Shown in pieces: positions 14,719-32,000 of a stretch of 32,000 nucleotides of DNA. How positions within the stretch are numbered: the first letter of the stretch is position 1; each line of letters opens with the position of its first letter. The DNA comes from Aquifex aeolicus VF5. Lineage in GTDB: Bacteria; Aquificota; Aquificia; Aquificales; Aquificaceae. A program made the position numbers and the translations under genes. The stretch lies in contig NC_000918.1 of NCBI RefSeq assembly GCF_000008625.1, forward strand, positions 90,001-122,000, written 5' to 3'. A model generated the notes under the pieces. It saw only the letters and a program-made list of their open reading frames with translations. It had not been told where the DNA came from and searched no databases.

Positions 14719-15598
14719 ATGATGCACGAGAAGCTGGAAAGGATTTGTTCCGTAATAGAACACTACCTCTCGGATATTTTGGGAAGGATAAGGGTGTACA
14801 GGGATGAGGCAAACTTCCTTATACCTTGGGGTTCTACTGTAATAAACGTGAACGTGTTTGGAGGAAGAAGAGGTATACATTGATGTAAACTCCCCTGTGG
14901 CTTTAAAGGTTCATCCGAGTAAAGACTTGATGAAGTTCCTATTATCGGAAAACGCAAACCTGAAGATGGCGTCTTTTTTTACGGAATTCGAAAAGGGTTT
15001 TATGGATATAATCGTAGGCATAAAAATAAGGTATAAGGATTTATCAAGGGAATTATTAAAGTTTGTAGTACTCAACATAGGTAATTTGGCAAACGAATAC
15101 GGAAAGGAAATAAGGGCTGTATTCGGTGGACTCTCCTTTAAGGAATATCTGGAGAGAGAAAAGTACTCTTACCCTTATTCGGGAGAAAAGCTCTTTCAGG
15201 AGAAGATTTCAATTAACGGAACGCTGCTTTTACTTGAAGTGTATGTGAAAGAAGAAAATTACACACTCATATGCCGAGAGGAAGGTAGTTCCAATTACCT
15301 TATAAAGGCTATAAGAAAAGTTGAAGGCCCCTATGAGGCTTTAAAAATACTTGAAAAAGCAAAAGAAAGTATTAAGAACAGAGATTTTGTATCTTTGAGA
15401 AAACTCTTCAGTCCGTACGAGGTAGACTTTTTTGAACTTTATTCCGTATTCCTTAAAGGAAAGGACACGACAAAACTGAAAAAACTTGAAAAAGAAATTC
15501 ACGAACTCCCGTATATGCTTATAAACGGAAAAATAACTTACGAGGAGTATAAGAAGAGGATAAGGGAAATAGAAAAGGAAATAGGGCTTTCGGAGTAG
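14719..15598 (+). pseudogene. YbjN-like (putative sensory-transduction/chaperone-like) domain protein with a long C-terminal extension, frame break near 14860-14861
   Basis: ORF 14695-14883 (…FLIPWGSTVINVNVF) and ORF 14858-15598 (EEEEVYIDVNSPVALKV...LLSENANLKMASF) together form one YbjN-type domain. This needs removal of one G from TTTGGAGG. The domain assignment is by eye. Confidence 0.5.
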
Positions 15599-15603
15599 CA
15601 AGA

Positions 15604-15816
15604 ATGAAATTAAAAAAACCTGCTAAAAAAACCTTAGAGGAAATAGGAAAACACTACCTGAATATCGGAGTAGCTATTATAGTTTTCGCAATAATACAAC
15701 CTATTGTACAGGGGAAATTTAATATTAAAGTTGCTCTATATTTTGGATTAGCATATTTTATTGTTTTCTCAATTGCAATAATATTATTAGTAATAGGAGG
15801 TTCCTGTGATGAATGA
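15604..15816 (+). CDS. small two-TM membrane protein, unknown function
   Basis: 70 aa with a basic N-terminus (MKLKKPAKK) and two hydrophobic helices. It lies in a markedly AT-rich segment. Confidence 0.45.
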   Translation: MKLKKPAKKTLEEIGKHYLNIGVAIIVFAIIQPIVQGKFNIKVALYFGLAYFIVFSIAIILLVIGGSCDE

Positions 15817-15928
15817 TATGTTTTTATATTACTTAATTCTTTTTTCTTTTGTATTACTCGCAGGAATATTTGGAATAGGAATAGTAATTCTGAGTTCTAA
15901 ATATAGTGATACTAAAAACAAGACTTAA
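15809..15928 (+). CDS. possible 39-aa single-TM protein (MNDMFLYYLILFSFVLLAGIFGIGIVILSSKYSDTKNKT)
   Basis: It is below the ORF-track cutoff. GGAGG lies upstream at 15796-15800. The ORF overlaps the preceding ORF by 8 nt, and its 3' end overlaps the convergent glycosylase gene. Confidence 0.3.
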   Translation: MNDMFLYYLILFSFVLLAGIFGIGIVILSSKYSDTKNKT

Positions 15929-16574
15929 TACATTTCTCTCTCAGCGGACACTCTTCACATAGTGGCTTTTTCTTGCAAAACTCCTTTGCATGAATGTCTA
16001 TAAGTGCGTGAAATTCTCTGTAAATTTCTAAATCTTTTGGCAAATTTTTCTCAAAAAGTCTTTTTATTTCTTCGTAAGAACCTTTTATATTCCACAATCT
16101 TTCGAGGAGTCTTTTGGTGTAGGCGTCTACAACGAACTCCAGTCTGTCGAGAGCGTAAAGTAGAATAGCATCAGCGGTTTCTTTTCCTATTCCTTTAACT
16201 TTTAAGAGGTCTTCCCTCTTCACATTTTTTAGATGGGAAATACTCGGAAACTTGTTCGCAAACTCCTTAAGGTATAGGCTCTTCTGTCTGTAAAATCCCG
16301 CAGGTTTTATTAATTCCATTAATTTTTCAGTAGGAATTTCCTTTATCGCCTTCAAGTTCAGGGCTTTTTCCCGTTTTAAGTTTTCCAGAGCTTTTTCAAC
16401 GTTTTTCCACGAAGTGTTTTGAGTCAGAATTGCACCGATGATTACCTCTTCTCTGGGATCGGAACCGTGAGTTTTGTGGTATTCAAGATCTACAGGCCAC
16501 CAGTTTTGCTTTCCGTAAAACTGAAGGAGTTTATCGTAAAGTTCAATTAACTCTCTTTTACCAATTCCAGACAT
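15912..16574 (-). CDS. endonuclease III-related HhH-GPD DNA glycosylase (COG2231/MpgII-like) with a C-terminal Fe-S Cys cluster
   Basis: Helix-hairpin-helix LLKVKGIGKETADAILLYAL, catalytic-region VVDAYTKRLL, and C-terminal CKKKPLCEECPLREKC. Confidence 0.85.
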   Translation of the reverse strand: MSGIGKRELIELYDKLLQFYGKQNWWPVDLEYHKTHGSDPREEVIIGAILTQNTSWKNVEKALENLKREKALNLKAIKEIPTEKLMELIKPAGFYRQKSLYLKEFANKFPSISHLKNVKREDLLKVKGIGKETADAILLYALDRLEFVVDAYTKRLLERLWNIKGSYEEIKRLFEKNLPKDLEIYREFHALIDIHAKEFCKKKPLCEECPLREKCIKSCF

Positions 16575-17290: not shown

Positions 17291-18795
17291 TTTTTCTTAC
17301 TCCCCCCTTTTGATTTGTCTTTAAGGAGAACCTCTTTTATCAAATAGTTCTGAATAATATTGAATACGTTGTTCAGCGTCCAGTAAAGAACCAGTCCCGC
17401 CGGGAAGTTTATAAAGAGTAATGTGAATGCCACCGAGGTTATGTATCCCACAAGGGCCTGCTTTGGATCGGGGGAAGGAGTCATCTTTTGCTGAAGTATC
17501 ATGGTAAGTCCCATAATAACGGGAAGTATGTAATAGGGATCCTTGTCCGCAAGGCTGGGAATCCAGAGGAAACTGCTGACTTTCAGATCTACGGTTATTA
17601 TGAGAACCTTGTATAGCGCAAAGAATATAGGTATCTGGAGGAGTATGGGAAGGCATCCTGCCATAGGGTTGAATCCCGTTTCCGCGTAGAGTTTCATCAT
17701 CTCTTCCTGCATCTTTACGGGATCGTCCTTATACTTCTGTTTAATCTTTTCCATTTTAGGGGCGAGTTCTTGAAGCTTTTGCATAGAAACTACGCTTTTG
17801 TACCCCAGCGGGAAGAGGAAAATCCTGACTATAAACGTGAGAACGAGGATAGAGAGAACCCAGCTTCCCGTGTGTTCGTATATCCAGTACAGGAAGAGAA
17901 AGAGCGGTTTTACTATTATCTTTAAAGTTCCCCAGTCTAAGGTATCTACCAAACCAAGTTCTCTGAGCCTTGCATAGTCCTTCGCACCAAGGTATATGGT
18001 CTTCTCTCCATCGTAAAGGAAAGTGGAAAGTGATACAAATTTATCTCCTAGTTTTACTTTGTAAACTATGTGTTTCTGGTAATCCTTTGCCCCTTTAAAG
18101 AAGTACCTGCTTTCCTCTCCTCCAAACTCAATATTCCCTTCAAACTCATTTATACCCTTTAGATCATCCACATCAAGCCTTACAACTTCCCCGTTTATTT
18201 TCAGAACAGGTCCTACGTGTGTATAAAATGCCTCATCATCGGGAGGAGAACCTACAAACACCCAGAAGGGTGGTTTTAATCCTTCAACGCTTAAATGAAT
18301 TGCTCCGTTTTTATAGGAAAGTATTTTCTTTACTTTCAGCTCCTTGTGGATTAATTCGACTGAGTTTTTACCTTCTTTAATTTCGTATTCTCCAAAGTTT
18401 AATTTCTGATCAAGGTCTGGATTTCCCGTGAATATCTCCAGAGGGAATATTTTTAACTCTCTTTCAGCTTTCGATATTAAATCAAAGCCGTACTTCTGAT
18501 CTATAAATCTTAAAATTTTCCCGCCTTTTTCAGACAATTCCAAGGAATAAATTCCTAGTTTTACAGTTTTAGTGTTTTTATACTCCTGTTTTTCTCTGAA
18601 AGTTCCGAGCATTAACTGGGGAAGGTTTACGTTTTTAAACTCTTCTTTTTTTACTACTTCTTTTTTTTCTGTTTTTTGAGGTTGAGAGGGTTTAACGTAA
18701 TAAATGTAAAATAGCTCGTAAGCGGTTATGAATAAAAACATTAAGATTGTGAATATTAAAAACCTTTTCCAGAACTGGTTGTCGTTGTCCATCAT
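17287..18795 (-). CDS. yidC: membrane protein insertase YidC
   Basis: 502 aa with an N-terminal TM helix, a large periplasmic domain and the conserved 5-TM C-terminal core (PLFLFLYWIY..., GCLPILLQIPIFFALY, LYWTLNNVFNIIQ). Confidence 0.92.
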   Translation of the reverse strand: MMDNDNQFWKRFLIFTILMFLFITAYELFYIYYVKPSQPQKTEKKEVVKKEEFKNVNLPQLMLGTFREKQEYKNTKTVKLGIYSLELSEKGGKILRFIDQKYGFDLISKAERELKIFPLEIFTGNPDLDQKLNFGEYEIKEGKNSVELIHKELKVKKILSYKNGAIHLSVEGLKPPFWVFVGSPPDDEAFYTHVGPVLKINGEVVRLDVDDLKGINEFEGNIEFGGEESRYFFKGAKDYQKHIVYKVKLGDKFVSLSTFLYDGEKTIYLGAKDYARLRELGLVDTLDWGTLKIIVKPLFLFLYWIYEHTGSWVLSILVLTFIVRIFLFPLGYKSVVSMQKLQELAPKMEKIKQKYKDDPVKMQEEMMKLYAETGFNPMAGCLPILLQIPIFFALYKVLIITVDLKVSSFLWIPSLADKDPYYILPVIMGLTMILQQKMTPSPDPKQALVGYITSVAFTLLFINFPAGLVLYWTLNNVFNIIQNYLIKEVLLKDKSKGGSKKK

Positions 18796-18998
18796 GGGTA
18801 ATCAACTCCTCCCTTAAAGAAAGGGTTGCACCTCAAGACTCTGAAGAAAGCCTTAATAAGTCCCTTCAGCACTCCGTACTTTTCCACAGCCATTATAGCG
18901 TATGTAGAACAAGTAGGGTAATACCTACAGGAAGAAGGGTAAAGAGGAGATATAAACTTCTGCCAGAATTTTAAGAAAATTAAAACTATACTTTTCAT
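18792..18998 (-). CDS. yidD: membrane protein insertion efficiency factor YidD
   Basis: 68 aa with FISPL...CRYYPTCSTYA...RCNPF..GG.D signature. The stop overlaps the yidC start. Confidence 0.9.
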   Translation of the reverse strand: MKSIVLIFLKFWQKFISPLYPSSCRYYPTCSTYAIMAVEKYGVLKGLIKAFFRVLRCNPFFKGGVDYP

Positions 18999-19001
18999 AA
19001 C

Positions 19002-26089: not shown

Positions 26090-27442
26090 TCACAGTATGT
26101 ACCTGCTCAGTTCTTCATCTTTTACGAGGTTTTCAAGTTTAGCCTTTACAAATTTTGCGTCTATTATTATAGTCTGCCCGGCCATTTCCGGAGCGTTGAA
26201 GGATATGTCTTCCAGGAGTTTCTCCATTACGGTGTGGAGTCTACGAGCCCCTATGTTTTCAGTCTTCGTGTTAATTTCCTCCGCAATCCTCGCTATCTCT
26301 TCTATTGCATCATCTGTAAACTCAAGGTAAACGTTTTCGGTTTTGAGGAGTTCTATATACTGCTTCGTGAGTGCGTTTTCTGGTTCTACGAGTATCCTCT
26401 TGAAGTCTTCCTTTGTGAGGGGTTTTAGTTCAACTCTTATGGGAAACCTTCCCTGGAGCTCCGGAATTAGGTCCGAAGGCTTTGCCATGTGAAAAGCTCC
26501 AGCCCCTATGAAGAGTATGTGATCCGTCTTTACAGGTCCGTACTTTGTGTTTACAGTGGTTCCTTCAAGTATTGGTAGGAGATCCCTCTGCACCCCTTCC
26601 CTTGAGACTCCGGGACCTGCTCCGGGTGTCTTTACCGCTATCTTGTCTATCTCATCTATAAAGATTATCCCGAAGTTCTCCGCCCTGTATATGGCTTCCC
26701 TTGCGACTTCCTCCATATCTATGAGCTTTTCCGCCTCTTCCTGCTCAAGTATCTGAAGGGCTTCCTTCACCTTTACCTTTCTCCTCCTCTTTGAGGGAAT
26801 AAGCCCTGAGAGCATCTCCTTTATCTGGTTCTCAAGTTCTTCGAGTCCGGGAGGTCCGGCTATTCCCACCATGGGCACGGTCTTTTCCTTTACCTCAATC
26901 TCAACTATCCTGTCGTCCAGTTCCCCCTTTCTGAGCTTTTGCCTGAGCTCCTCTCTCTTTCCGGCGTCCCTGCTTTCCCTTATTCCGAAGCTCGTGAACT
27001 GGTGGGGTACGAGGTAATCGAGGAGTCTCTCTTCGGCGAGTCTTCTGGCCCTTTCCCTTACCTCTTTCATCTTTTCCTGTTTGACCATCTGGAAGGAGAC
27101 TTCCACGAGTTCTCTTACCATGCTTTCAACATCTCTTCCCACATACCCTATTTCCGTGTACTTCGTTGCCTCTACTTTCACAAAGGGTGCCTTTATGAGG
27201 TTTGCAAGCCTCCTCGCTATTTCCGTTTTTCCCACACCCGTTGGACCTATCATCAGTATGTTTTTCGGGATAACCTCATTCCTCAGGTTTTCTGGGAGTT
27301 TTTGCCTCCTCCAGCGGTTTCTGAGGGCTATGGCAACGGCCTTTTTCGCCTCCTCCTGACCTACTACGTACTTGTTTAGCTCCTCTACTACCCTCTTAGG
27401 TGTTAATTCTTCAAGGAGCTCAGAAAGGGATTTCGTCGTCAT
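26090..27442 (-). CDS. hslU: ATP-dependent protease ATPase subunit HslU
   Basis: 450 aa with [12 protein letters not shown], Walker [18 protein letters not shown] and the I-domain insertion. Confidence 0.95.
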
Positions 27443-27884
27443 CTTTTGACCTCTCGGTGGTTTCTAAAGAAACTTCTTTAACTATCCTGTCAAGGAACGC
27501 GTCAAGGTCCTCGGGGAACTTTTCGAACTTGAGTTCTTCGGGGTAAACCCTTTCCACCACTTCGGGCGGCGGATTTCCGAAACCTATTGCTGGAACGATG
27601 TTCTTCGCTCCCCTTCTGACCGCTTCTCCGATTGCTATCCTGTAAGCTTCCCTCAGGGCCGTTTCAATATCCTTGAACCTGTCCACTTCGTCTCCTAGTT
27701 CGTACAGGGTTATGTCGTAGGCTTCTTCCTTGAACTTTTCCCAGTCTCTGATACCTCTGATGTAGTACTTTCCCTGACTTCCTGTGAGTTCAACGCTAGA
27801 GAGGTCGTCGAGCTTAAATGTAACGATGTAGTAATCTACAAGTTCCCTGTCCGCGTAAACGTCTATAAAGAAGAAAAACTCCAT
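27420..27884 (-). CDS. acidic hypothetical protein ending in an SSB-tip-like DDDEIPF motif
   Basis: 154 aa. The 3' end overlaps the hslU start by 23 nt. The C-terminus reads ...[14 protein letters not shown] recognise no domain. Confidence 0.6.
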
Positions 27885-27937: not shown

Positions 27938-28960
27938 ATGGAACTGGTAAGGGAACTGCTAAGGAAAATAGCTGAATTTGAAAACCTAACTGCGGAAGAA
28001 ATGTACAACTTGATGAAAGAAGTGGCGGAGGGAAGGGCAACGGACGCCCAGATCGGAGCACTCGTAATGGGAACAAAGATGAAGGGGGAAACTCCTGAGG
28101 AAATAGAGGGTGCAGTAAAGCTCTTCAGGGAAAAAGTCGTAAGGGTTCCCGTAAAAGATCCTGAAGAGCTCGTGGACGTAGTAGGAACGGGAGGAGATAA
28201 AAGTTCTACTTTTAACGTTTCCACTGTTACTGGGTTTGTTCTCGCTGGTGCAGGAGTAAAAGTGGCAAAACATGGGAACCGCTCCGTCTCTTCAAAAAGC
28301 GGTAGTGCGGATTTTCTGGAAGCCCTCGGAGCAAAAGTAGAACTTCTCCCTGAAAAGGTGGCGAGACTTATTGAAGAAGTGGGATTCGGATTTATGTTCG
28401 CTCCGCTCTTCCACCCCGCCATGAAAAGGGTCGTTTCTCCGAGAAGGGAGGTGGGAGTCCGATCCATTTTTAATTTGATAGGACCACTTACAAACCCCGC
28501 GGGTGTAAAGAGGTATCTCCTCGGTGTTTTTTCAAAGGAATACGTTGATAAATTCGCAAAAGCCCTTAAAAACCTCGGCGTTAAAAAGGCATTCGTCGTG
28601 CACGGGGAAGGTGGTATTGACGAGGTGAGCGTAGAAGGGGAAACCTACGTTACGGAAGTTTCAGAAGAAGGGATAAGGAGTTTTACCTTTTCTCCTGAAG
28701 AACTCGGTGTAAAGAGAAAGTCTCTGAGTGAAGTTAGGGTAAACTCCCCGGAAGAGAGCGTAAAAGTTGCACTTTCAGTTTTGAGAGGAGAAGAGGGAAC
28801 GCCGAGGGATATGGTTCTCCTGAACGCAAGCTTCGGAATTCTCGTATCTGAAAGGGCAGGGGATATAAAGGAAGCCTTTGAAATGGCTAAGGAGTCCATA
28901 GACAGCGGAAAGGCTCTGGAGGTATTGGAGAAGTATGTGGAACTCTCAAATAAAATCTGA
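27938..28960 (+). CDS. trpD: anthranilate phosphoribosyltransferase
   Basis: 340 aa with VGTGGDKSSTFNVST and KHGNRSVSS motifs. Confidence 0.95.
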   Translation: MELVRELLRKIAEFENLTAEEMYNLMKEVAEGRATDAQIGALVMGTKMKGETPEEIEGAVKLFREKVVRVPVKDPEELVDVVGTGGDKSSTFNVSTVTGFVLAGAGVKVAKHGNRSVSSKSGSADFLEALGAKVELLPEKVARLIEEVGFGFMFAPLFHPAMKRVVSPRREVGVRSIFNLIGPLTNPAGVKRYLLGVFSKEYVDKFAKALKNLGVKKAFVVHGEGGIDEVSVEGETYVTEVSEEGIRSFTFSPEELGVKRKSLSEVRVNSPEESVKVALSVLRGEEGTPRDMVLLNASFGILVSERAGDIKEAFEMAKESIDSGKALEVLEKYVELSNKI

Positions 28961-30162
28961 TGAAGGAAGCCCTTATCCTTTTCTTTCTTATAGTTTCCTA
29001 TAACTACCTCCTTTACTACATAACCGCCAAAGATTTAGCACTAATTCCCCTCTTTCCCGAAAACCCGGAAGAGATCATACTCGTCATAGCCTTCAACTCG
29101 GCCCTTTATATAGGCTGGTTCTTCGGGGAGAGGAGAAAACTCGTAACAATTCTGGGTTATTTATTTTTCTTTCAGACAGTTCTACTCTCTTTAGTGAAGA
29201 AAGATCCCTACACCTTCGTTTCTACCGCTTTTCCCGTGATCTTTACGCTTATGCTAGTTGCTCTATTCAAGAGCCCCTTTGAAAGGGAACTCGAAAGGAT
29301 ACAGAAAGAGAAAGAAGCACTGCTGGAAGAGCTGGAGAAAAACGAAGAGGTAAGACAAAAAGTAGAGGAAGAAAGAGAACGTCTAAAGAAGGAAATATCC
29401 CTCATAAAACTCCAGATAGAACAAAAAGAAAGAGAACTTGAAAGAGCTAAAGAGGCACAGGAGAAACTGGAAGAGGTTGAGAAAAAAGAAAAAGAAGTTA
29501 ATAAACTCAAAGAAAAACTAAGGGAACTCGAGAAAAACTTAAAAAAACAAAAGGAAAAGGAAGAGAAACTCCTAGAATCCAACAGGAAACTATTTCAGTT
29601 GCTTGAACTGCTCGGAAGGAAGGAAGATAAGAGGAGGGGAAGCAAAGAGGTAAGGGAGCTGAGAAAAGAGAGGAAGAAACTGGTCAAGGAAGTTTTAGAG
29701 CTACAGGATCTTCTGGAGATATACTCAAGGGAAAATGAGGAGTTAAAAAAGGAGCTTGAAAAGTTAAAGAGTGAACTAGAAGGGGCCAAAAAGGAAATCG
29801 CTAAACTCTTAACCGAAAAAGAGAATTTATCAAAAGCGGTAAAGAAGAAGGAAGAGATTTACGAGGAAGTCTTAAGAGTTTTCCTTCCGAACGTGAAGTT
29901 TACACCGGAAGCCCTTCAAGAATTCATGAGTTTATCCACTCAGGAGAAGAGGAGGTTTTTGAGGGAATTGGAAAAACTGGAGGAAGGAACGAAGCTCGAG
30001 AGTTTAACAAACGTTCACGGAGTTTACAAGCTCAAGTTCGGAGGTGGAAGGATTTACGTAAGGAAGGAAGGGGACAGGTGGGTAGTTATCGGTATACTGG
30101 ATACGGAGCAGGACAAGGAAAAAGAGCGCTACATAGAGTCTTTGAGGGATAGATTGTATTAA
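28960..30162 (+). CDS. membrane-anchored coiled-coil protein with a C-terminal RelE/ParE-superfamily-like domain
   Basis: 400 aa with about 4 N-terminal TM helices and an about 190-aa K/E-rich coiled coil. The C-terminus VKFTPEALQEFMSLSTQEKRRFLRELEKLEEG...VHGVYKLKFGGGRIYVRKEGDRWVVIGILDTEQ follows the RelE/ParE beta-alpha-alpha-beta3 pattern. The ATG shares one base with the trpD TGA. Confidence 0.65.
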   Translation: MKEALILFFLIVSYNYLLYYITAKDLALIPLFPENPEEIILVIAFNSALYIGWFFGERRKLVTILGYLFFFQTVLLSLVKKDPYTFVSTAFPVIFTLMLVALFKSPFERELERIQKEKEALLEELEKNEEVRQKVEEERERLKKEISLIKLQIEQKERELERAKEAQEKLEEVEKKEKEVNKLKEKLRELEKNLKKQKEKEEKLLESNRKLFQLLELLGRKEDKRRGSKEVRELRKERKKLVKEVLELQDLLEIYSRENEELKKELEKLKSELEGAKKEIAKLLTEKENLSKAVKKKEEIYEEVLRVFLPNVKFTPEALQEFMSLSTQEKRRFLRELEKLEEGTKLESLTNVHGVYKLKFGGGRIYVRKEGDRWVVIGILDTEQDKEKERYIESLRDRLY

Positions 30163-30227
30163 TAGGAGTCTGGTAAAATTGATAAAGGACTTAGCAAAAA
30201 CTTTGATAAAAACAAAGGAGGAAAGAC

Positions 30228-31451
30228 ATGGCAGAATTAAGGGAAACTCTCGAAAGACTCGCATCCTTCAGACCTCAAAATTACTACGTTTCCACCCTTT
30301 ATTTGAGATTAATGCCCGAAGACAGGCAGGACAACAAGTACCTGAGGGTTTACAAGGACCTAGTGAAAAAGAAGGAAAAGGATTTAGAAAACCTGAACCT
30401 GGATAAAGAGGTTCTTGATTCTATAAGGGGGGACATTAAGAACATTCAGGACTTTTTATCCGATCCTAAAAACCTTTACAACTGCAGGGGGATAGCGATA
30501 TTTTCCTGCTCAAAGCTCGGACTGTTTGAGTACGTGAAACTTCCCTACGTTTACAGAAACAGGCTTATGTTCTCACCTGACCCTCTCGTGAGGGAAATAG
30601 CGGCGATAGACGAGGAGTTCGGAAGGGTTGCAGTTCTGCTTCTTGACAGAAAACACATAAGGTACTTCCTCATGGACATAACGGGAATAGAAGAAAAGCT
30701 GGACTTCTTAGAGCCCATGACCACGAGAGCCCACAGGTTCCACAGCGGAGGAGCGCTTCTCAAAGGTGCGGAGGGAACGTTCCAGTACAGAATGCCCGCG
30801 AGGGGTGCAGCGCCAAACGTAGTTCAGCACGGAATGGGTGAGTGGCGTTTCCACATGAGATTAAGGGAAGAGTGGCACAGGATACTCAAACTCGCATCGG
30901 ACGCCCTCTTTGAAGAGTGGAAGAGAATACACTTTGACAAGTTAATAATCGGGGGATTTATAGAAGAAGGTCTGAGGGAAATAGAAAACTTCCTGCACCC
31001 ATACGTTAAAGAAAAACTGGTGGGTTACATAGAGATAACGCCCGAAGAGGCAACTCCCCATCAAGTTTGGGAAAAAGCCCTTGACCTCCTTTGGCAAAAG
31101 GACAGGGAGCAGGAAAAGGAAATAATTAAGGAGCTTGAAGAATTAAAGGGCTGGGGACTCGCGGTTAACGGAACTTCGGAAGTTCTTGAAATGCTAGCCA
31201 TAGGAAACGTAAGAACGCTAATTCTTCCAGAGGACTTTGAAAAACCCGGATACCTCTGTCCGCAGAGTCACCTCGCATTCTTAAAGCCCGAGTGCCCCCT
31301 TCCCGAAGAAAAGCCCATTCCCGTAAGCGACGTGGTTGACGAGGCATTAGAAGAGGCCCTGGATCAAAGGGCAACGATAGAGGTTATAATAGATAAGGAA
31401 CTCCAGAAGAAGGTGGACGGACTTGCGGCGTTCTTAAGGTTTAAGCTATGA
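30228..31451 (+). CDS. bacterial archaeo-eukaryotic release factor 1-like (baeRF1, eRF1/Pelota fold) protein
   Basis: 407 aa with AAGGAGG 8 nt upstream. The C-terminus GLAVNGTSEVLEMLAIGNVRTLILPEDF...ATIEVIIDKELQKKVDGLAAFLRFKL resembles eRF1 domain 3. The central region has FHSGGA where GGQ is expected. Confidence 0.65.
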   Translation: MAELRETLERLASFRPQNYYVSTLYLRLMPEDRQDNKYLRVYKDLVKKKEKDLENLNLDKEVLDSIRGDIKNIQDFLSDPKNLYNCRGIAIFSCSKLGLFEYVKLPYVYRNRLMFSPDPLVREIAAIDEEFGRVAVLLLDRKHIRYFLMDITGIEEKLDFLEPMTTRAHRFHSGGALLKGAEGTFQYRMPARGAAPNVVQHGMGEWRFHMRLREEWHRILKLASDALFEEWKRIHFDKLIIGGFIEEGLREIENFLHPYVKEKLVGYIEITPEEATPHQVWEKALDLLWQKDREQEKEIIKELEELKGWGLAVNGTSEVLEMLAIGNVRTLILPEDFEKPGYLCPQSHLAFLKPECPLPEEKPIPVSDVVDEALEEALDQRATIEVIIDKELQKKVDGLAAFLRFKL

Positions 31452-32000
31452 ACGAGAGGTTAATGATATTCATCGACGGTTCTAATCTGTTTCACGGAAT
31501 ACGGTACTTGAACATAAAGGTGGATTATTCAAAACTCGTGGAGTTCTTGAGGGAGGGGCGCTACCTCGTTCGCGCTTACTTTTACACCGCCGTTCCTCAG
31601 GAAAAGGACATCAAGAAGGGAACGCCCGAGTGGGACAGTCTTCAGAGACAAAAGAGGTTCCTTGACGAACTTTCCTTTATGGGCATAAAAGTGAAGACAG
31701 CTCACTTGAGGAAACTCCCGAGCGGTGAGTACCTGGAAAAGGAAGTTGACATAATGCTTGCCACGGATATGCTCTCCCTTGCTTACAGAAACGCTTACGA
31801 TACGGCTGTTCTCGTTAGCGGGGATAGCGACTTTATACACACCGTGGAAGCGGTGCAGAGTCTGGGAAAGAGGGTGGAAAACGCAACATTCAAGAAAACG
31901 AGTTCCTACAACCTGAGAAAGGTGTGCGACAGGTTCATACTTCTGGACGACCATCTTGACAAGATACTCATGGAGGAGAAGGGTAAAGAAATAGTTCCCG
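31448..32000 (+). CDS. NYN/LabA-like domain protein, predicted RNase (3' end outside the window)
   Basis: It is not in the ORF track because no stop falls within the window. The ATG overlaps the upstream TGA (ATGA). Motifs seen: MIFIDGSNLFHG, KEVDIMLATDM, VLVSGDSDF. Confidence 0.8.
   Translation, partial: MNERLMIFIDGSNLFHGIRYLNIKVDYSKLVEFLREGRYLVRAYFYTAVPQEKDIKKGTPEWDSLQRQKRFLDELSFMGIKVKTAHLRKLPSGEYLEKEVDIMLATDMLSLAYRNAYDTAVLVSGDSDFIHTVEAVQSLGKRVENATFKKTSSYNLRKVCDRFILLDDHLDKILMEEKGKEIVP

Follow-up and report, generated by a model that had tools for sequence, protein, structure and literature searches.

The closest described relatives of the system considered here are Balon, Msmeg1130 and Rv2629, hibernation factors whose structures have been solved on ribosomes (Helena-Bueno et al. 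2024, PMC10901736). Balon homologs bind the ribosomal A site together with EF-Tu in an mRNA-independent manner, and they lie in stress operons (PMC10901736). Among NYN nucleases, Rae1 cuts mRNA at stalled ribosomes (PMC12407103, PMC13622287), and the LabA-type proteins have no established nuclease substrate (PMC5499597). At the membrane, YqjD, ElaB and YgaM tether ribosomes and inactivate them (10.1101/2024.08.16.608256). In this study, we analyzed a stretch of 32,000 nucleotides (nt) of the Aquifex aeolicus VF5 genome (NC_000918.1, positions 90,001-122,000, forward strand; hereafter the window), in which the list of open reading frames (ORFs) and direct sequence reading place three consecutive plus-strand genes at 28960-32000. 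We call them g1 (a predicted membrane-anchored protein with a RelE-fold C-terminus), g2 (a relative of Balon) and g3 (a predicted NYN nuclease). An earlier interpretation made from the letters alone (hereafter the sequence-only reading) had already recognized the three same-strand genes, and the ORF coordinates confirm them. Its statement that bacterial homologs of aeRF1 were described only computationally is outdated, given the ribosome-bound structures of Balon, Msmeg1130 and Rv2629 from 2024 (PMC10901736). We tentatively favor, at somewhat less than an even chance, the view that the block forms an Aquificaceae translation-control module around a Balon-type A-site factor, by which ribosomes would be shut down in a stress-linked and nuclease-coupled way as part of housekeeping stress physiology.

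A genome scan with a g2 alignment, using one genome per species, yielded 61 loci. According to their identity (50-88%), 58 of them belong to Aquificota, including one titled 'Acidobacteria bacterium', and the others come from Gemmatimonadota (2 loci) and Solibacteraceae (1 locus) at 23-31%. The NYN gene lies directly 3' of g2 in 46 of the 56 loci with enough sequence, and a 4-nt overlap between g2 and the NYN gene is present in 40 of 49 loci. A g1 gene is found directly 5' of g2 in 37 of 54 loci, with gaps of 1-57 nt. The genes outside the block vary: upstream of g1, Aquifex has trpD, a second clade has a ZnuA-like gene and the Hydrogenobacter/Thermocrinis clade has mazG; downstream of g3, some clades have rdgB and others have ribF. 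Since the trio is kept while both flanks differ between clades, the adjacency of its members is older than that of the outer neighbors. The genes themselves are real, because more than 100 homologous loci hold intact ORFs with invariant residues. We also scanned metagenomes with the C-terminal head of g1 as seed and obtained 45 loci, in which g1 adjoins g2 (17 loci), stands alone (21) or could not be decided (7). Most of the g1-only loci represent a single syntenic context, with g1 followed by an epimerase gene and then metE, and g1 keeps all of its invariant residues in the unlinked loci. Thus, the pairing of g2 with g3 is strongly conserved, and g1 often accompanies the pair but can be separated from it, as an accessory and not an obligate partner. 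Co-occurrence of the three families, which the sequence-only reading had named as a check, was borne out within Aquificaceae by these counts and the differing flanks, and not as an obligate triad or in other phyla. In Thermocrinis-type loci without g1 (L022:2968-3867, L025:2801-3700, L026 and L055), a 299-amino-acid (aa) protein is encoded directly 5' of g2; read from its sequence, it would be an EpmA/PoxA-like lysyl-tRNA-synthetase paralog, another translation-related neighbor.

The protein encoded by g2 belongs to the baeRF1 clade and is related to Balon in structure, without being a Balon equivalog. Pfam assigns it to baeRF_family12 (PF18856; 68.5 bits, cutoff 27.7, E=1.1e-18), baeRF_family10 also scores above its cutoff (42.8 bits, E=8e-11), and eRF1_3 falls just under its own (25.1 bits, cutoff 25.8, E=2.5e-5). 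An AlphaFold (AF2) model built on 20 homologs reached a mean predicted local distance difference test score (pLDDT) of 84.8 and a predicted template modeling (TM) score (pTM) of 0.80. In Foldseek searches of PDB, the best match of this model was ribosome-bound Msmeg1130 (8v9j_z, E=2.9e-19, TM 0.63/0.69); archaeal aRF1 (4af1, 2.4e-17) ranked third, and Balon of P. urativorans (8rd8_B, 1.7e-16) and Rv2629 (8v9k_z) were further matches, with other aRF1, eRF1 and Pelota structures following at lower TM scores. Over the full length, the matches to Balon homologs, aRF1, eRF1 and Pelota extend from E=1e-19 to 1e-5. The model and these matches together show a three-domain aeRF1 fold with an N domain, an RNase-H-like middle domain and an eRF1_3/Pelota-type C domain.

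Examination of the g2 sequence for the NIKS and GGQ motifs of class-I release factors revealed neither. In an hhalign profile alignment, the Gln of the GGWSQ motif in a family-10 protein aligns with the invariant E205 of g2, which is part of the invariant motif GE[WY]RF, and g2 residues ~174-201 are partly gapped against the same protein. The loop at residues 167-201 (~35 residues) is disordered in the model (pLDDT <50) and contains the invariant pattern RAH[RK]FHSGG..LKGA.G. This His/Arg/Gly-rich, invariant loop lies at the position that faces the peptidyl-transferase center in eRF1 and Balon. By analogy with the characterized factors, g2 would bind the A site and would not release the peptide; hydrolase activity is formally possible despite the Glu at the Gln position. 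We also considered a displaced GGQ, formed around the near-invariant Q200 or the invariant SGG, and rejected it as the main interpretation; the family-10 Gln aligns to E205. In the C domain, residues 341-366 form an insert with model strands at E341-344, E349-351 and E364-366 and with two invariant cysteines, C344 and C356, which is probably a degenerate zinc ribbon. The baeRF1 families were described as having a two-strand insert at the zinc-ribbon site (Burroughs and Aravind, PMC6514570), and the g2 insert may be equivalent to the beta-hairpin of Balon.

Some further observations concern g2 homologs. In three loci from metagenome-assembled genomes (MAGs), L045:5989-7502, L049:5998-7219 and L050:2535-3748, the g2 homolog is split into 2-3 ORFs, for which a frameshift, a pseudogene or an assembly error is each possible. 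Two family-10 baeRF proteins turned up through the common GE[YW]RF-type pattern, neither with an NYN or g1 neighbor: the Solibacteraceae protein (L061:5986-7125) keeps GGWSQ and thereby possibly an active release-factor loop, and the Gemmatimonadota protein (L059:947-2035) has SGEYRF as in family 12.

The product of g3 matches Pfam NYN (PF01936) with 121.3 bits (cutoff 24.2, E=6e-35), and its best PDB match by sequence is 2qip, which is the representative structure of the COG1432/LabA group (PMC5499597). Residues D10, N13, E99, D101, D107, D126 and D128 are invariant in 54 sequences, so that the acidic active site of the predicted nuclease is complete. All of its 58 homologs end in an acidic linker followed by a 12-residue amphipathic cationic helix. 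In this genome the tail, taken from the full sequence on contig L107, reads GFLERFKKFFGL, and SFWERIKKLWKR and GFWAKIKSLWKR are examples from homologs. The hydrophobic moments of the tails are 0.35-0.79, and in moment and charge they are like the membrane-targeting sequences of FtsA and MinD of E. coli. It seems that g3 may associate peripherally with the membrane through this tail; alternatively, the tail may be a protein-docking peptide.

The N-terminal part of g1 shows four peaks of at least 1.6 in a Kyte-Doolittle profile, corresponding to predicted transmembrane helices at about residues 3-23, 37-57, 60-80 and 83-105, and this region is conserved by itself in homologs (E from 1e-16 to 1e-40). 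An N-in/C-in topology is likely, judging from the basic loop GERRK and from the basic residues that follow the fourth helix. Residues 106-300 consist to 78% of E/K/R/L/Q with a single Pro, and SMC/Rad50 coiled-coil matches are sub-threshold (NCBIfam E~1e-6); this predicted stalk, which would presumably span ~30 nm if fully extended, holds a basic segment, LRKERKKLVKEV, that is conserved in the family alignment. With the full-length sequence, no Pfam family scored above threshold, Pfam and NCBIfam returned coiled-coil noise only, and phmmer against PDB gave nothing meaningful.

For the C-terminal head of g1 the sequence matches are marginal. ParE_toxin (PF05016; 16.6 bits, cutoff 23, E=0.012) and Gp49 (PF05973; 15 bits, cutoff 23.9, E=0.026) are both under threshold; a profile of the 39-sequence head family returned E. 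coli RelE as its top four PDB matches at E~0.02, and a direct hhalign comparison with E. coli RelE gave E=1.7e-4 at a probability of 49.5%. The AF2 model of residues 301-400 has a pLDDT of 89, and all of its 50 best Foldseek matches in PDB are RelE, HigB, YoeB, YafQ, ParE or the RelE domain of Cami1 (RelE 2kc8, E=2.5e-4; HigB1 7awk, TMq 0.67; TMt 0.43-0.74 for single-domain targets), with RelE-type ribosome-dependent nucleases ranked above ParE. Because the model and the Foldseek evidence are clear, we assign the head to the RelE/ParE fold, in which a beta-alpha-alpha unit precedes a three-stranded sheet and a C-terminal helix, despite the marginal sequence matches. The domain assignments of the sequence-only reading therefore stood for all three genes: a RelE/ParE domain at the C-terminus of g1, an eRF1-like baeRF protein in g2 and a LabA/NYN nuclease in g3.

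Seven residues do not vary among 70-72 unique sequences of the g1 head, namely K357, G362, G363, R364, Y366, G378 and K388. Position 359 carries K or R throughout, K386 and R390 hardly vary, and at position 391, 50 of 70 sequences have Y and 19 have F. Both HMMER and hhalign align K357, K359 and R364 with K52, K54 and R61 of RelE. A manual alignment of the last helix only (ERYIESLRDRL against EVYSEAVKRIL) places Y391 on RelE Y87 and K386, K388 and R390 near R81/R83. K52, K54, R61, R81 and Y87 are active-site residues of RelE, and by this comparison the g1 head seems to have what a RelE-type site needs to bind or cleave RNA.

Homologs of g1 were found in 38 genome loci and 45 metagenome loci, and an exhaustive HMMER search of 1.84 billion representative proteins detected 27 proteins, of which about 20 have the full length of 360-420 aa and share the architecture of g1. 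The full-length relatives came from these loci and from the exhaustive search; word-indexed searches with the C-terminal domain returned short fragments, one with a single sequence and nine with the 39-sequence alignment. Three of the 27 proteins (P0150, P0151 and P0152, 131-322 aa) are distant and combine coiled-coil or disordered regions with a RelE-like C-terminus, P0151 having one N-terminal transmembrane helix. Tethered RelE-like proteins may form a broader but sparse class.

How the parts would work together can be outlined as follows. When cells are stressed or ribosomes stall, g2 would occupy the A site, probably together with EF-Tu as Balon does, and the ribosome would be silenced without peptide release. 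The target of the co-produced g3 would be the RNA of these ribosomes, whose mRNA it would clear or trim, and its membrane-targeting-like tail would put it at the membrane. The g1 protein could be a membrane-tethered, ribosome-dependent mRNA endonuclease or a ribosome dock that feeds the same pathway; its task would be either to cleave mRNA in the A site of ribosomes close to the membrane or to capture ribosomes there. The RelE head of g1 and g2 would compete for one A site, so that they could work jointly only one after the other. The membrane theme shared by g1, with its four transmembrane helices, and g3, with its conserved amphipathic cationic tail, counts in favor of such a module.

Several points weigh against this translation-control module. 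The RelE head and the Balon-like g2 cannot act simultaneously on one ribosome, and the membrane association of g3 is suggested by resemblance only. The score of g2 is far under the equivalog cutoffs of the NCBIfam models for Balon-type hibernation factors (AOC03_06830, MSMEG_1130 and Rv2629), with 56.4, 30.3 and 17 bits against cutoffs of 330, 480 and 320 for NF052287, NF052288 and NF052289, so that its binding mode may differ; moreover, the N domain lacks the HP motif, there being no His in residues 1-133. The linkage is also incomplete. In about a dozen loci, one of them from an Aquifex MAG (L002), the g2-g3 pair has no g1 next to it, g2 is alone in one Aquificota clade (L037-41, L047-48), the three g2 relatives outside Aquificota have neither partner, and g1 has no g2 or g3 beside it in 21 of 38 decidable metagenome loci. 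In addition, genes are as a rule tightly packed in this genome, and unrelated neighbors commonly overlap by 4 nt: at least seven other gene pairs in the window (29-26088) share such overlaps, as do the NYN gene and rdgB (L107:7844-7847). The sequence-only reading took the ATGA overlap of g2 and g3 as translational coupling. The overlap is present, at 31448-31451, where g3 starts inside the g2 stop; it is weak evidence of functional coupling, because overlaps of this kind between unrelated genes are routine here.

One alternative is that the three are independent neighbors in a compact genome, with g2 a stand-alone Balon-type hibernation factor, g3 a general tRNA/rRNA-processing NYN nuclease and g1 a membrane coiled-coil scaffold whose RelE fold has another role. 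Operons of unrelated genes with overlaps are pervasive, as in trpD-g1 and g3-rdgB-atpG-like, g1 is separable from g2, g2 is solitary in some clades, and LabA-type NYN genes elsewhere are tied to tRNA/rRNA-processing operons (PMC5499597). Nevertheless, we consider independence unlikely: the g1-g2-g3 adjacency persists across genera in which both outer flanks are replaced, g2 and g3 adjoin in 46 of 56 loci, and chance would hardly bring together three neighboring folds that all act on ribosome-bound RNA or on RNA generally. A different function for a genuinely linked block would be rescue, a quality control resembling no-go decay, in which g1 or g3 cuts the mRNA of stalled (e.g. translocon-jammed) ribosomes and a Pelota-like g2 enters the emptied A site and dissociates or recycles the ribosome. 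It is a serious possibility, although on the whole we lean against it. It would fit the matches of g2 to Pelota and Dom34 structures, the putative RelE active-site residues kept in g1 and the membrane-association features of both nucleases; a rescue role has been proposed for the baeRF1 families by Burroughs and Aravind (PMC6514570), and Rae1, which cuts upstream of ribosomes that have stalled, works together with rescue (PMC12407103, PMC13622287). On the other hand, g2 is structurally closer to Balon homologs (TMq 0.55-0.63) than to Pelota (0.20-0.36), it lacks the catalytic Gln, and the block contains no ABCE1-like or Hbs1-like splitting partner. The present data do not separate the hibernation version from the rescue version. 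A bolder combination of these ideas, which we regard as quite improbable, would make the block a membrane-localized bacterial counterpart of no-go decay: the tethered RelE domain would cut A-site mRNA of membrane-stalled ribosomes, a Balon/Pelota-like g2 (probably with EF-Tu) would fill the vacated A site with its His/Arg/Gly loop in the peptidyl-transferase center, and a membrane NYN nuclease made in fixed ratio with g2 would degrade the message.

The sequence-only reading had instead suggested a ribosome-associated system of RNA cleavage, surveillance or conflict, the last of the abortive-infection kind, in which the eRF1-like protein would rescue or gate ribosomes attacked by the nucleases. 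In its full form this alternative would make g1 and g3 toxins and g2 their antidote or gate in a toxin-antitoxin or abortive-infection system. RelE-fold and NYN domains are indeed common in toxin and defense systems, the RelE domain of Cami1 (PDB 8phj, among the Foldseek matches of the g1 head) serves as a defense effector, and loss of g1 with g2-g3 kept is the pattern expected if g1 were a toxin. PADLOC gave no system-level match; g3 matched its generic NYN model and the candidate model HEC-09 (8.5e-19), g1 matched coiled-coil noise, and g2 had no match. However, homologs of g2 were absent from 72,556 plasmids and from 50,697 phage records, and the block is limited to Aquificaceae, diverges in step with the lineage and sits among housekeeping genes (trpD, rdgB, ribF and mazG). 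No antitoxin-like small gene lies beside g1, its neighbors being trpD, the ZnuA-like gene or mazG upstream and g2 or the epimerase gene downstream; the sequence-only reading was right that this is not a classical toxin-antitoxin layout. A role for g2 as the linked antidote of g1 is disfavored because g1 survives without g2 beside it, and the 21 loci with intact g1 and no adjoining g2 or g3 are hard to square with it. We therefore consider the conflict explanation very unlikely, and the block is best read as chromosomal and vertically inherited, and not as mobile, toxin-antitoxin or anti-phage.

The coordinates of the block are given in Table 1. The ATG of g1 overlaps the trpD stop by 1 nt (TGATG), and g3 extends ~74 nt past the window end, its full length being 208 aa on contig L107, which is 100% identical over 601 nt. 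A terminator scan found no plus-strand terminator-like site between g1, g2 and g3; promoter-like matches were weak and that scan was uninformative. Rfam scanning of the whole window gave no match, and a tRNA search found none. The GC content over the three genes is similar to that of the rest of the window, with no anomaly.

Table 1. Positions of the three genes and their parts in the window
Feature	Position	Strand	Description
g1	28960..30162	+	400 aa; predicted membrane anchor, coiled coil and C-terminal RelE-fold domain
g1 residues 1-105	28960..29274	+	4 predicted transmembrane helices
g1 residues 106-300	29275..29859	+	predicted coiled-coil stalk, ~195 aa
g1 residues 301-400	29860..30159	+	RelE-fold domain
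AGGAGG Shine-Dalgarno	30216..30221	+	6 nt 5' of the g2 ATG, within the 65-nt g1-g2 spacer
g2	30228..31451	+	407 aa; baeRF family 12, bacterial aeRF1-like
g2 residues 167-205	30726..30842	+	family-specific loop at the GGQ position; invariant alignment columns
g2 residues 341-366	31248..31325	+	beta-strand insert with 2 invariant Cys; model strands and alignment
g3	31448..32000 (window end)	+	predicted LabA-type NYN (PIN-like) nuclease; 184/208 codons inside the window

Beyond g3, contig L107 continues with rdgB/Ham1, a 393-aa protein with an ATP-synthase-gamma match in Pfam and an opposite-strand KaiC-like ATPase. The 393-aa protein (L107:8436-9617, ~1.2 kb past the window end; Pfam ATP-synt, F1 gamma) seemed odd in length for a gamma subunit, and it is kept 3' of rdgB in Aquifex/Hydrogenivirga-type loci (cluster c7). 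Elsewhere in the window, a 154-aa ORF on the minus strand (27420-27884) lies between hslU and trpD; it has no Pfam match on record, and its start region overlaps the hslU coding region. Two stretches have a low GC content, 15001-16000 (0.327) and 18001-19000 (0.354), against a window mean of ~0.43.

Parts of this picture are known already: Pfam has entries for baeRF family 12 and for NYN, and the characterization of Balon-type factors dates from 2024. In the Balon paper, the baeRF1 survey, the PIN-superfamily classification and text searches, we found no description of a conserved baeRF12-NYN pair, of the transmembrane/coiled-coil/RelE architecture of g1, of the membrane-targeting-like tail of g3 or of the family-12 loop with Glu for the catalytic Gln; searches on membrane-anchored RelE gave nothing relevant. 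Those supplements of the Balon and baeRF1 papers that are readable as text contain nothing on Aquificota. Balon-type factors were recognized only in 2024, with EF-Tu and RaiA as their known partners; here, a deep-branching thermophile lineage consistently pairs a Balon relative with a nuclease, often together with a tethered RelE-fold protein. If the link is functional, it would give a handle on whether bacterial A-site hibernation or rescue factors work with RNA cleavage, as Pelota does with no-go decay in eukaryotes, and it would show a toxin fold (RelE) recruited to a housekeeping role at the membrane. If the idea of a no-go decay counterpart proved true, a Balon system would for the first time be found coupled to nucleases, and a tethered RelE domain would have its first physiological role outside toxins. 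With a spurious link, what is left is three correctly annotated, separate genes. The block is lineage-restricted and its mechanism inferred; it offers a concrete and testable link between Balon-type factors and RNA cleavage, and its thermostable proteins and invariant motifs (RAH[RK]FHSGG and GE[WY]RF) are attractive for structural work.

The g1 head shares with RelE/HigB the RelE fold and putative counterparts of K52, K54 and R61, and probably also an aromatic residue at Y87 and a basic cluster at R81/R83. It differs in being fused to four predicted transmembrane helices and a ~200-aa coiled coil without an adjacent antitoxin gene, in having a longer loop before the last helix, and in belonging to a tiny, Aquificaceae-confined family whose nuclease activity is predicted. 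In being a RelE head joined to another module and not paired with an antitoxin, g1 resembles Cami1 (CARF-RelE). RNase Y has a transmembrane segment, a coiled coil and a nuclease head that is a KH-HD unit. It shares with g1 the layout of membrane anchor, long coiled coil and RNase-type head; neither RNase Y nor YqjD/ElaB/YgaM has any sequence or fold relation to g1. The notion that ribosomes are inactivated at the membrane links g1 to YqjD, ElaB and YgaM (10.1101/2024.08.16.608256), whereas YqjD is C-tail anchored and blocks the 50S tunnel. For g3, a precedent is the NYN nuclease Rae1/YacP, whose mRNA cleavage takes place on stalled ribosomes (PMC12407103); Rae1, however, belongs to the separate NYN_YacP family, and g3 is LabA-type with a conserved C-terminal amphipathic tail.

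Pelota/Dom34 of eukaryotes and archaea offers an analogy only, namely an aeRF1-fold A-site factor without release activity that goes together with endonucleolytic mRNA cleavage at stalled ribosomes; there are no Hbs1/ABCE1-type partners here, g2 is nearer to Balon, and the nucleases are of unrelated families. From Balon, Msmeg1130 and Rv2629, g2 is set apart by an identity of only 11-16% in structural alignments, by its separate Pfam family (baeRF family 12) with motifs of its own (RAH[RK]FHSGG and GE[WY]RF), and by the lack of the decoding-center HP motif that Balon has in its N domain (PMC10901736). Its gene also stands beside an NYN nuclease, whereas the neighbors reported for Balon are RaiA, Hsp20 and RtcB. 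What g2 has in common with these factors is the three-domain aeRF1 fold (E=3e-19 to 2e-14, TM ~0.55-0.69), and the absence of NIKS and GGQ. Its C domain also has a beta-strand insert, and the middle domain has a long loop, particular to the family, that may correspond to the lasso loop and bL27 trap of Balon.

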